Of a stretch of DNA of 40,159 nt, positions 24,700 to 26,147 are shown in pieces. The DNA is from Kayfunavirus MT1B1P3: the sequence record OZ035815.1. One strand, 5' to 3'. Position numbers and translations under genes: made by a program. Within the stretch, counting starts at the first letter, position 1, and every line of letters starts with the position of its first letter. The notes under the pieces are model-generated. The model was given only the letters and a program-made list of their open reading frames with translations, was not told the origin of the DNA and did not search any database.

Positions 24700-24701
24700 G
24701 A

Positions 24702-24723
24702 CTAAACTATCACTATAGGGAGA
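24702..24723 (+). promoter_or_regulatory. phage RNAP promoter (phi10-like, full consensus)
   Basis: ctaaactatcactatagggaga, identical to T7 consensus from -7 to +6 (CACTATAGGGAGA). Confidence 0.7.
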
Positions 24724-24825
24724 CCAAGAGATAGACTCAAGGTTTCCCTATTACTTCAGTCCATACGGATTGGGCATACAGTAAGTAATAAACTTTATCT
24801 TTCAATTGAATAGGAGAATTATCAT

Positions 24826-25869
24826 ATGGCAAACGTTCCGGGTCAGAAAATTGGTACAGACCAAGGTAAAGGCAAATCCAGTTCAGACGCTCTGGCGTTG
24901 TTCCTGAAGGTATTTGCTGGTGAAGTCCTGACCGCATTCACTCGCCGCTCTGTAACTGCTGACAAGCATATTGTCCGTACCATTCAGAACGGTAAGTCTG
25001 CTCAGTTCCCGGTCATGGGTCGCACCTCTGGTGTGTATCTGGCTCCGGGTGAGCGACTGTCCGATAAGCGTAAAGGTATCAAACATACCGAGAAAGTGAT
25101 TACCATTGATGGTCTGCTGACTGCCGATGTGATGATTTTCGACATTGAAGACGCGATGAACCACTACGACGTGGCTGGCGAGTATTCCAACCAGTTGGGC
25201 GAAGCTCTGGCTATCGCTGCTGATGGTGCGGTGCTGGCTGAAATGGCGATCCTGTGTAACCTACCGGCTGCATCCAACGAGAACATCGTGGGTCTGGGCA
25301 CTGCGTCAGTACTGGAAGTTGGCAAGAAAGCTGACCTCAACACCCCGGCTAAACTGGGTGAAGCAATCATTGGTCAACTGACCATTGCTCGTGCGAAGCT
25401 GACCTCCAACTACGTTCCTGCTGGCGACCGTTACTTCTACACCACGCCGGACAACTACTCTGCAATCCTAGCGGCTCTGATGCCGAACGCTGCTAACTAT
25501 GCTGCGCTGATTGACCCAGAGACTGGTAACATCCGTAACGTGATGGGCTTCGTTGTTGTTGAAGTTCCGCATCTGGTACAGGGTGGCGCTGGTGAGACTC
25601 GTGGTGACGATGGCATCTCTATCGCTTCCGGTCAGAAACACGCATTCCCGGCAACTGCTACTGGCGACGTTAAAGTTGCTATGGACAACGTTGTTGGTCT
25701 GTTCTCTCACCGTTCTGCTGTGGGTACTGTGAAGCTGCGTGACTTGGCGCTGGAACGTGACCGTGACGTAGATGCTCAGGGCGACCTGATTGTTGGTAAA
25801 TACGCTATGGGTCACGGTGGTCTGCGTCCTGAAGCGGCTGGCGCACTGGTTTTCAGCCCAGCGGCGTAA
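24826..25869 (+). CDS. 10A: major capsid protein (T7 gp10A-like)
   Basis: 347 aa; extensive recalled identity to T7 gp10A (LALFLKVF.GEVLTAF, GKSAQFPV.GRT, HTEKVITIDGLLTADV, DIEDAMNHYDV, ALMPNAANYAALIDPE, VGTVKLRDLALER, KYAMGHGGLRPEAAGA). Confidence 0.97.
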   Translation: MANVPGQKIGTDQGKGKSSSDALALFLKVFAGEVLTAFTRRSVTADKHIVRTIQNGKSAQFPVMGRTSGVYLAPGERLSDKRKGIKHTEKVITIDGLLTADVMIFDIEDAMNHYDVAGEYSNQLGEALAIAADGAVLAEMAILCNLPAASNENIVGLGTASVLEVGKKADLNTPAKLGEAIIGQLTIARAKLTSNYVPAGDRYFYTTPDNYSAILAALMPNAANYAALIDPETGNIRNVMGFVVVEVPHLVQGGAGETRGDDGISIASGQKHAFPATATGDVKVAMDNVVGLFSHRSAVGTVKLRDLALERDRDVDAQGDLIVGKYAMGHGGLRPEAAGALVFSPAA

Positions 25870-26000
25870 GCACCTTTAGCCAACCTAACGTCGCTACAGT
25901 AGCGGCTGCACCTGAAGAGGAGACTCTAACTCCTCAACAGAAAGCTGCGCGTACTCGTGCTGCGAACAGGGCCGCTAAACTGGCTGAGTCCAACAACTAA
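25848..26000 (+). CDS. 10B: putative -1 frameshift extension producing minor capsid protein 10B
   Basis: slippery heptamer G GTT TTC at 25848-25854, seven codons before the 10A stop; the -1 frame stays open for 50 codons to TAA at 25998-26000; same sequence and extension length as recalled for T7 gene 10. Confidence 0.5.
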   Translation, partial: GFQPSGVSTFSQPNVATVAAAPEEETLTPQQKAARTRAANRAAKLAESNN

Positions 26001-26004
26001 TTGA

Positions 26005-26043
26005 AACCCCTTGGGTGCCTTCGGGTGCTTGAGGGGTTTTTTG
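26005..26043 (+). terminator. phage RNAP terminator (Tphi-like) after capsid gene
   Basis: aaccccttgggtgccttcgggtgcttgaggggttttttg: GC-rich hairpin plus T-run, very similar to recalled T7 Tphi. Confidence 0.8.
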
Positions 26044-26057
26044 CTTAAGGAGGTACT

Positions 26058-26147
26058 ATGGTCCTTATTTACACAGGGTTAGCACTATTCGTCTTATTCT
26101 GGGCGTACCTGCTGTCCAGCTCACCGTCTAGCGCCTATGACCGTTAA
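26058..26147 (+). CDS. possible small hydrophobic protein (29 aa)
   Basis: hand-translated MVLIYTGLALFVLFWAYLLSSSPSSAYDR; SD aaggagg 6 nt upstream; below ORF-track cutoff. Confidence 0.25.
   Translation: MVLIYTGLALFVLFWAYLLSSSPSSAYDR

Follow-up and report, generated by a model that had tools for sequence, protein, structure and literature searches.

Gene 10 of the phage analysed here very probably contains the 10A/10B recoding site of K1F-like phages, at which a -1 slip on the heptamer G GUU UUC would yield a 391-aa minor capsid protein, 10B, besides the 347-aa major capsid protein 10A. The feature is already known, since it is textbook knowledge for T7 and has been both published and exploited experimentally in K1F. 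The window, which is the whole stretch of 40,159 nucleotides that was analysed (record OZ035815.1), can be assigned on sequence grounds to Kayfunavirus and, within the T7 group, to the K1F-like members; all positions given below are positions of the window, and the features described lie on the + strand. From 24700 to 26100 it is 100% identical to Escherichia phage Mt1B1_P3, the nearest record, and 99.8% identical to vB_EcoA_ASO2B. The genes around the site are arranged as in T7, in the order portal, scaffold, capsid (gene 10), terminator, gene 11 and gene 12.

The gene that harbours the slip site is a homologue of T7 gp10A, as judged from matches in Pfam and PDB. Gene 10A occupies 24826..25869 in the zero frame, starts with the ATG at 24826 and ends with the TAA at 25867-25869, and its 347-aa product matched the Gp10A-like family PF21703 with an E-value of 1.5e-104 and, among solved structures, 9vvq as well as the T7 10A structures 2xvr and 3j7w (E = 2.9e-146). 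In the records of Mt1B1_P3 and K1F, 10A is labelled as major capsid protein. Ahead of the gene, at 24703..24725, lies a promoter for the phage RNA polymerase equivalent to phi10, with the sequence CTAAACTATCACTATAGGGAGAC, and the same position in ASO2B has been annotated as matching the K1F promoter consensus. The ASO2B record also places a rho-independent 'terminator' hairpin over the 5' untranslated region, in the equivalent of 24703-24760 (+) of the window; this hairpin is more likely a stem of the 5' leader than a terminator.

The slippery heptamer GGTTTTC is found at 25848-25854 and is in frame: it starts with the G that closes the CTG codon 341, followed by GTT (Val342) and TTC (Phe343), which is the same sequence at the same codon position as the site of T7 gene 10. 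Past the heptamer, the zero frame reads AGC CCA GCG GCG TAA, with the stop as codon 348, so that the distance of seven codons between heptamer and 10A stop claimed in an earlier note on this DNA is right if the count starts at the CTG codon 341. The -1 frame contains 28 stops across gene 10A, the last of them being the TGA at 25830-25832, and is open only from 25833 to 25997. It ends with the TAA at 25998-26000, two bases 5' of a terminator homologous to Tphi whose hairpin starts at 26003, in agreement with what had been noted before about the end of this frame. Zero and -1 frames are thus both open over just 12 codons (25833..25866), between the TGA of the -1 frame and the 10A stop at 25867, and no second slippery motif besides the heptamer was seen in this overlap.

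Translation of the -1 frame indicates that a shift at the heptamer would replace the 10A residues SPAA by 48 new residues, QPSGVSTFSQPNVATVAAAPEEETLTPQQKAARTRAANRAAKLAESNN (beginning with QPSGVSTF and ending with KLAESNN), encoded together with the TAA stop by 25854..26000. The product, 10B, would have 391 aa and a computed mass of 40.9 kDa, compared to 347 aa and 36.3 kDa for 10A. The earlier note had counted 50 further codons in the -1 frame, a number that has to be corrected to 48, and had predicted a minor capsid protein with an extension of about 50 aa; the reading as a frameshift product stands, while the size is slightly off, as the net gain amounts to 44 aa (4.6 kDa). In all other points the note describes the site accurately. 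Tryptic digestion of 10B is predicted to release the junction peptide YAMGHGGLRPEAAGALVFQPSGVSTFSQPNVATVAAAPEEETLTPQQK, with a computed mass of 4.9 kDa.

Some figures obtained from the window would suit a reading in which the spacer between gene 10 and the terminator happens to be open in the -1 frame, its conservation being due to an RNA processing site, the terminator context or some other element of the RNA or DNA, and in which 10B does not exist. The heptamer occurs twice on the + strand of the window against approximately 2.5 expected copies, i.e. at chance level, and, with 3 of 64 codons being stops, random sequence is estimated to stay open for 44 codons past the 10A stop with a p of about 0.1. 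In Mt1B1_P3, ASO2B and K1F, the closest records, moreover, only 10A is annotated. We regard this reading as highly improbable in view of what the relatives show. Already within the window, the copy at 25848-25854 is the sole in-frame GGTTTTY among the + strand ORFs of at least 100 aa, and in these ORFs a -1 frame that stays open for at least 48 codons follows just 2.7% of codons. In K1F, gfp was fused to the end of g10b, that is, at the end of the -1 frame, and stable fluorescent phage were obtained (PMC6277420), which speaks against a frame that is not translated.

For the comparison with relatives we used a set of 86 loci, consisting of the window and 85 relatives taken from annotated phage records and from IMG/VR contigs that were found via the 10A protein. 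Of the 37 loci in which GGTTTTY is present in frame at the homologous Val-Phe codons, 36 have a -1 ORF that extends for 40 codons or more past the 10A stop, although this association overstates the number of independent events because the loci are phylogenetically related. The pattern holds in T7, in Berlinvirus, in Kayfunavirus and in environmental lineages, and this co-occurrence of heptamer and -1 ORF across clades is not what a chance frame would lead one to expect. The one exception is locus L016 (IMGVR_UViG_2974615076_000001), which has a one-base deletion (TAAG to TAG) at the 10A stop. In this locus the otherwise intact tail is shifted to the +1 frame and the -1 ORF is cut to 10 codons, so that the locus is either naturally 10B-null or affected by a sequencing error. 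Among the loci with neither GGTTTTY nor an A AAG motif, a long -1 ORF was found in eight of 35; two of these eight have the variant C GTT TTC together with an Ig-like tail, and in three the frame just runs into gene 11. Relatives in which the Val-Phe pair is encoded by GTC TTC or GTA TTC lack the kinds of extension that follow slip sites; the -1 frame ends early or is one of the incidental cases among those eight. Judged from the comparison with relatives, slip site and tail lie well beyond chance.

The tail itself carries the mark of a translated sequence. When the phage collection was searched by tblastn with the 48 aa of the tail, zero matches were obtained, probably due to low-complexity masking, and relatives of the tail were sought by a DNA search in distant mode instead. 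The tails of the window, K1F, Berlinvirus phages, T7 and the Teetrevirus phage VSG32, hence of four genera, align via the core LTP(Q/A)Q(K/E)AARTRAAN(K/R)A(R/A)K. In the 18-codon core, pS was 0.6-0.9 and pN 0.08-0.18, with values of 0.61-0.89 and 0.08-0.15, respectively, when the window was compared with T7 and with Berlinvirus; over all pairs compared, pN of the core reached up to 0.23, and dN/dS was about 0.05-0.2 where it could be computed. The core has thus been kept from T7 to the window although synonymous sites have become almost saturated. Taken together for six clade representatives, the differences in the core fall on the first, second and third codon positions of the -1 frame in numbers of 36, 37 and 133. 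This excess at third positions, together with a pN far below pS, is a coding signature and argues against conservation as an RNA element; in addition, length differences among the relatives preserve the reading frame of the tail. These patterns point to purifying selection at the protein level on the core of the -1 tail. In a search against PHROG, the tail matched families 12582 (E = 7e-10) and 20538, both of which are described as 'head protein'.

Tandem tRNA slippage on G GUU UUC is the best-supported mechanism for reaching this tail. Most ribosomes would read gene 10 up to the TAA and produce the 347-aa 10A, while a minority would slip back by one base with GUU in the P site and UUC in the A site. 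In these ribosomes, tRNA-Phe would re-pair from UUC to UUU and tRNA-Val, imperfectly, from GUU to GGU, after which 48 codons of the -1 frame would be decoded up to the TAA at 25998-26000, ahead of the Tphi terminator. The resulting 391-aa 10B would co-assemble into the shell, bearing a short, partly basic C-terminal tail. That 10B is synthesised and enters virions is taken over by analogy from the close relatives K1F, Kvp1 and T7, and the ribosomal nature of the shift has likewise been taken from published work on such relatives. G GUU UUC deviates from the canonical X XXY YYZ motif, as re-pairing in the P site from GUU to GGU leaves a mismatch at the middle base, and it differs from sites of the retroviral, IS or dnaX type in that full re-pairing of both tRNAs is not achieved. 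In the review of Atkins and colleagues, the G_GU of T7 gene 10 is described as an intermediate form of X XXY YYZ (PMC5009743).

Alternatively, the phage RNA polymerase might slip on the T run during transcription, and the longer protein would then be translated from mRNA with one base less or two bases more. A homopolymeric run of four T is indeed present at the site, and the sequence alone does not separate the two routes. However, for transcriptional slippage to be productive, a run of roughly seven or more A or T is normally required, and one of only four falls short of this. Furthermore, the heptamer is conserved as a whole, with the G in front and GTT as the Val codon, which fits tandem tRNA re-pairing and not a slip of the polymerase on four T, and T7 gene 10 is listed in a review among the ribosomal frameshift sites that are decoded by bacterial ribosomes (PMC5009743). 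The probability that we assign to transcriptional slippage is accordingly very small, and the ribosomal shift remains the preferred reading.

We also looked for elements that might stimulate the ribosomal shift. Downstream lies the Tphi-homologous transcription terminator at 26003..26047, recognised by fold and alignment, with a 17-bp stem, a UUCG loop and a U run. Its hairpin (26003-26040) has a folding energy of -25.2 kcal/mol (z = -4.5), none of 200 shuffled sequences folded as well, and a simple terminator scan likewise reported a site at this place. The terminator can be aligned with Tphi as annotated in T7 and T3, and AACCCCTTGGG...TGAGGGGTTTTT is nearly invariant in the five phages that were aligned. 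In T7, whose terminator has its CCCC over 200 nt 3' of the shift site, an unexplained long-range effect of this CCCC has been described (PMC5009743). The homologous terminator of the window retains CCCC at 26007-26010, 153 nt 3' of the shift site, although terminator function alone explains its conservation equally well. Nearer to the heptamer, folding of the 45 nt downstream predicted a weak candidate hairpin at 25860..25895, which starts 5 nt past the heptamer and has an 8-bp stem formed by 25860-25867 with 25888-25895 (-10.8 kcal/mol). The stem is kept in six of seven distinct close relatives via one-sided changes only, and K1F breaks one pair by a C-to-A change; as compensatory changes are lacking, the stem is not claimed as functional and is considered a weak candidate for a stimulator, based on its predicted fold. 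None of the downstream folds was significantly more stable than those of shuffled sequences, with z-values of -1.1, -0.07 and -1.7 for 45, 70 and 106 nt, respectively, and inspection by eye of about 25 nt upstream of the heptamer revealed no Shine-Dalgarno-like element. Either the CCCC of the terminator, acting at long range as in T7, or the weak local hairpin may be the stimulator, and both may contribute.

Between the terminator and gene 11, at 26058-26147 (+), we observed an ORF for a hydrophobic peptide of 29 aa, MVLIYTGLALFVLFWAYLLSSSPSSAYDR, preceded by GGAGG 5 nt upstream. Its equivalent in phage Pipis is annotated as a hypothetical protein with a single transmembrane segment, it is unannotated in Mt1B1_P3 and K1F, and a search against PHROG gave no match for it.

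Of the systems described so far, K1F is the closest. Its 10A is 98% identical to that of the window, and the two phages agree in the heptamer and its position, in the terminator and in the length of 10B (391 aa), the differences being point differences only, with a single one in the 48-aa tail (RAAK against RADK). The -1 shift in K1F gene 10 has been reported to add 44 triplets, and the K1F substitution T377I (PMC6277420) matches a Thr at residue 377 in our 391-aa 10B. The 10B locus of K1F has since been used for capsid display, an adhesin included, in a study of 2026 (PMC13370021). In T7, GGTTTTC is the shift sequence and 10B arises in about 10% of translations (PMC1635266). The window shares with T7 the G GUU UUC at homologous Val-Phe codons, a few triplets upstream of the 10A stop, a tail that ends before Tphi and contains the core (E)TLTPxQxAARTRAANKA, and the homologous terminator, and the conserved T7-type 10A/10B arrangement that the earlier note had recognised is thereby borne out. 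On the other hand, the two 10A proteins are only about 71% identical, the tail comprises 48 codons versus 56 in T7, with a first half that cannot be aligned confidently, and the CCCC of the terminator lies closer to the shift site than in T7.

In the Kluyvera phage Kvp1, mass spectrometry has shown 10B arising from -1 slippage at TTTTCA (PMC2579914). Kvp1 belongs to a different genus and the first half of its tail differs from that of the window, but it likewise slips on a poly-U stretch with a Phe codon, and Berlinvirus-type tails have the same conserved core. In T3 and phiYeO3-12, too, a minor capsid protein results from a -1 shift that takes place a few codons ahead of the 10A stop. In contrast to the window, with its GGUUUUC and short basic tail, these two phages shift at lysine codons (PMC2579914), namely on C CCA AAG, and their tail is an 85-aa Ig-like domain of the Big_2 type.

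Several records would suggest that the tail is a separate small protein made by independent initiation inside the -1 ORF, as ETEP21B, VSG32 and BSP161 annotate it as a stand-alone CDS named 'minor capsid protein' or '10B', the one of VSG32 being a separate small 'minor capsid protein' CDS. The sequence speaks against this. Between 25833 and 25997, the -1 ORF contains no ATG, GTG or TTG, the sole near-cognate codon being the CTG at 25980, and no ORF of 30 aa or more is listed there; without a start codon of its own, the tail can be reached from gene 10A only. In Kvp1, peptides of the tail were found by mass spectrometry in a capsid-sized band of 43.6 kDa (PMC2579914), and the numbering of residue T377 in K1F treats the product as a fusion of 391 aa. 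Of the alternatives that we weighed, a protein initiated within the tail is the one to which we give the smallest probability of all, below that of a chance frame or of polymerase slippage. Readthrough of the 10A TAA, finally, was rejected, as it would add just 10 zero-frame codons (APLANLTSLQ) and miss the conserved -1 tail.

The annotation of 10A itself is not uniform among relatives. Structure 9vvq in PDB (about 97% identical), the phages PRF-SP2 (L004) and Pipis (L003) and other GenBank records label the 347-aa 10A as 'minor capsid protein', a label that has apparently spread from best hits to the 10B of T3 or T7; none of the entries 9vvq, PRF-SP2 and Pipis includes a frameshift tail. Joined -1 frameshift CDSs are found in the records of Peacock, which is a Kayfunavirus, and of T3.

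What follows the slip site varies considerably among the loci compared, and the modules found behind it comprise the basic tail, two domains of roughly 87 aa, Big_2 Ig-like domains and a 470-aa extension. From this, the slip site looks like a junction for the exchange of capsid-display modules. Unrelated -1 tails stand behind the same G GTT TTC in loci L008, L015, L019-L029, L076, L080 and L081, compared with 25855-26000 of the window. The 10A proteins of these phages are 94-99% identical to that of the window (82% in L076), their tails are domains of roughly 87 aa of at least two sequence types, and homology resumes at the terminator; a Pfam scan with the approximately 87-aa tail of the L008 type gave no match. 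Two IMG/VR loci, L049 and L064 (3300034349_000001 and 3300034127_000003), show G GTT TTT followed by a -1 extension of 470 codons, which contains a Big_2 Ig-like domain (E = 1.5e-10) and, behind it, about 390 aa of unassigned function. A reading of this extension as an SGNH hydrolase, for which FEGDSLT, HCGTNNY and DGTHSN are similar by eye, was discarded, as sequence searches of Pfam and PDB did not support it. Klebsiella phage VSG32 (L009, Teetrevirus) combines a lysine slip site of the T3 type (C CAA AG) with a basic tail of the T7 type (…LTPQQKAAITRARNKALKSQ), which indicates that the type of slip site and the type of tail assort independently.

The 10B protein of T7 is dispensable in the laboratory. 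Despite this, the core of the tail is under strong purifying selection across four genera, from which a specific function of the tail seems possible. We would tentatively propose, as a speculation that we hold to be rather less probable than its contrary, that the basic tail LTPxQKAARTRAANxAxK may have an unrecognised function at the capsid surface and that the slip site may be a fixed socket for display modules that are exchanged among phages with 10A proteins of at least 94% identity. The site raises no new biological question, the role of the conserved tail being an old one, and the main value of the result lies in annotation: the correct form for this phage is a joined -1 frameshift CDS giving the 391-aa 10B. 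At the same time, the site marks the spot at which foreign domains can be displayed in low copy number on the capsid, as has been done in T7 and K1F.
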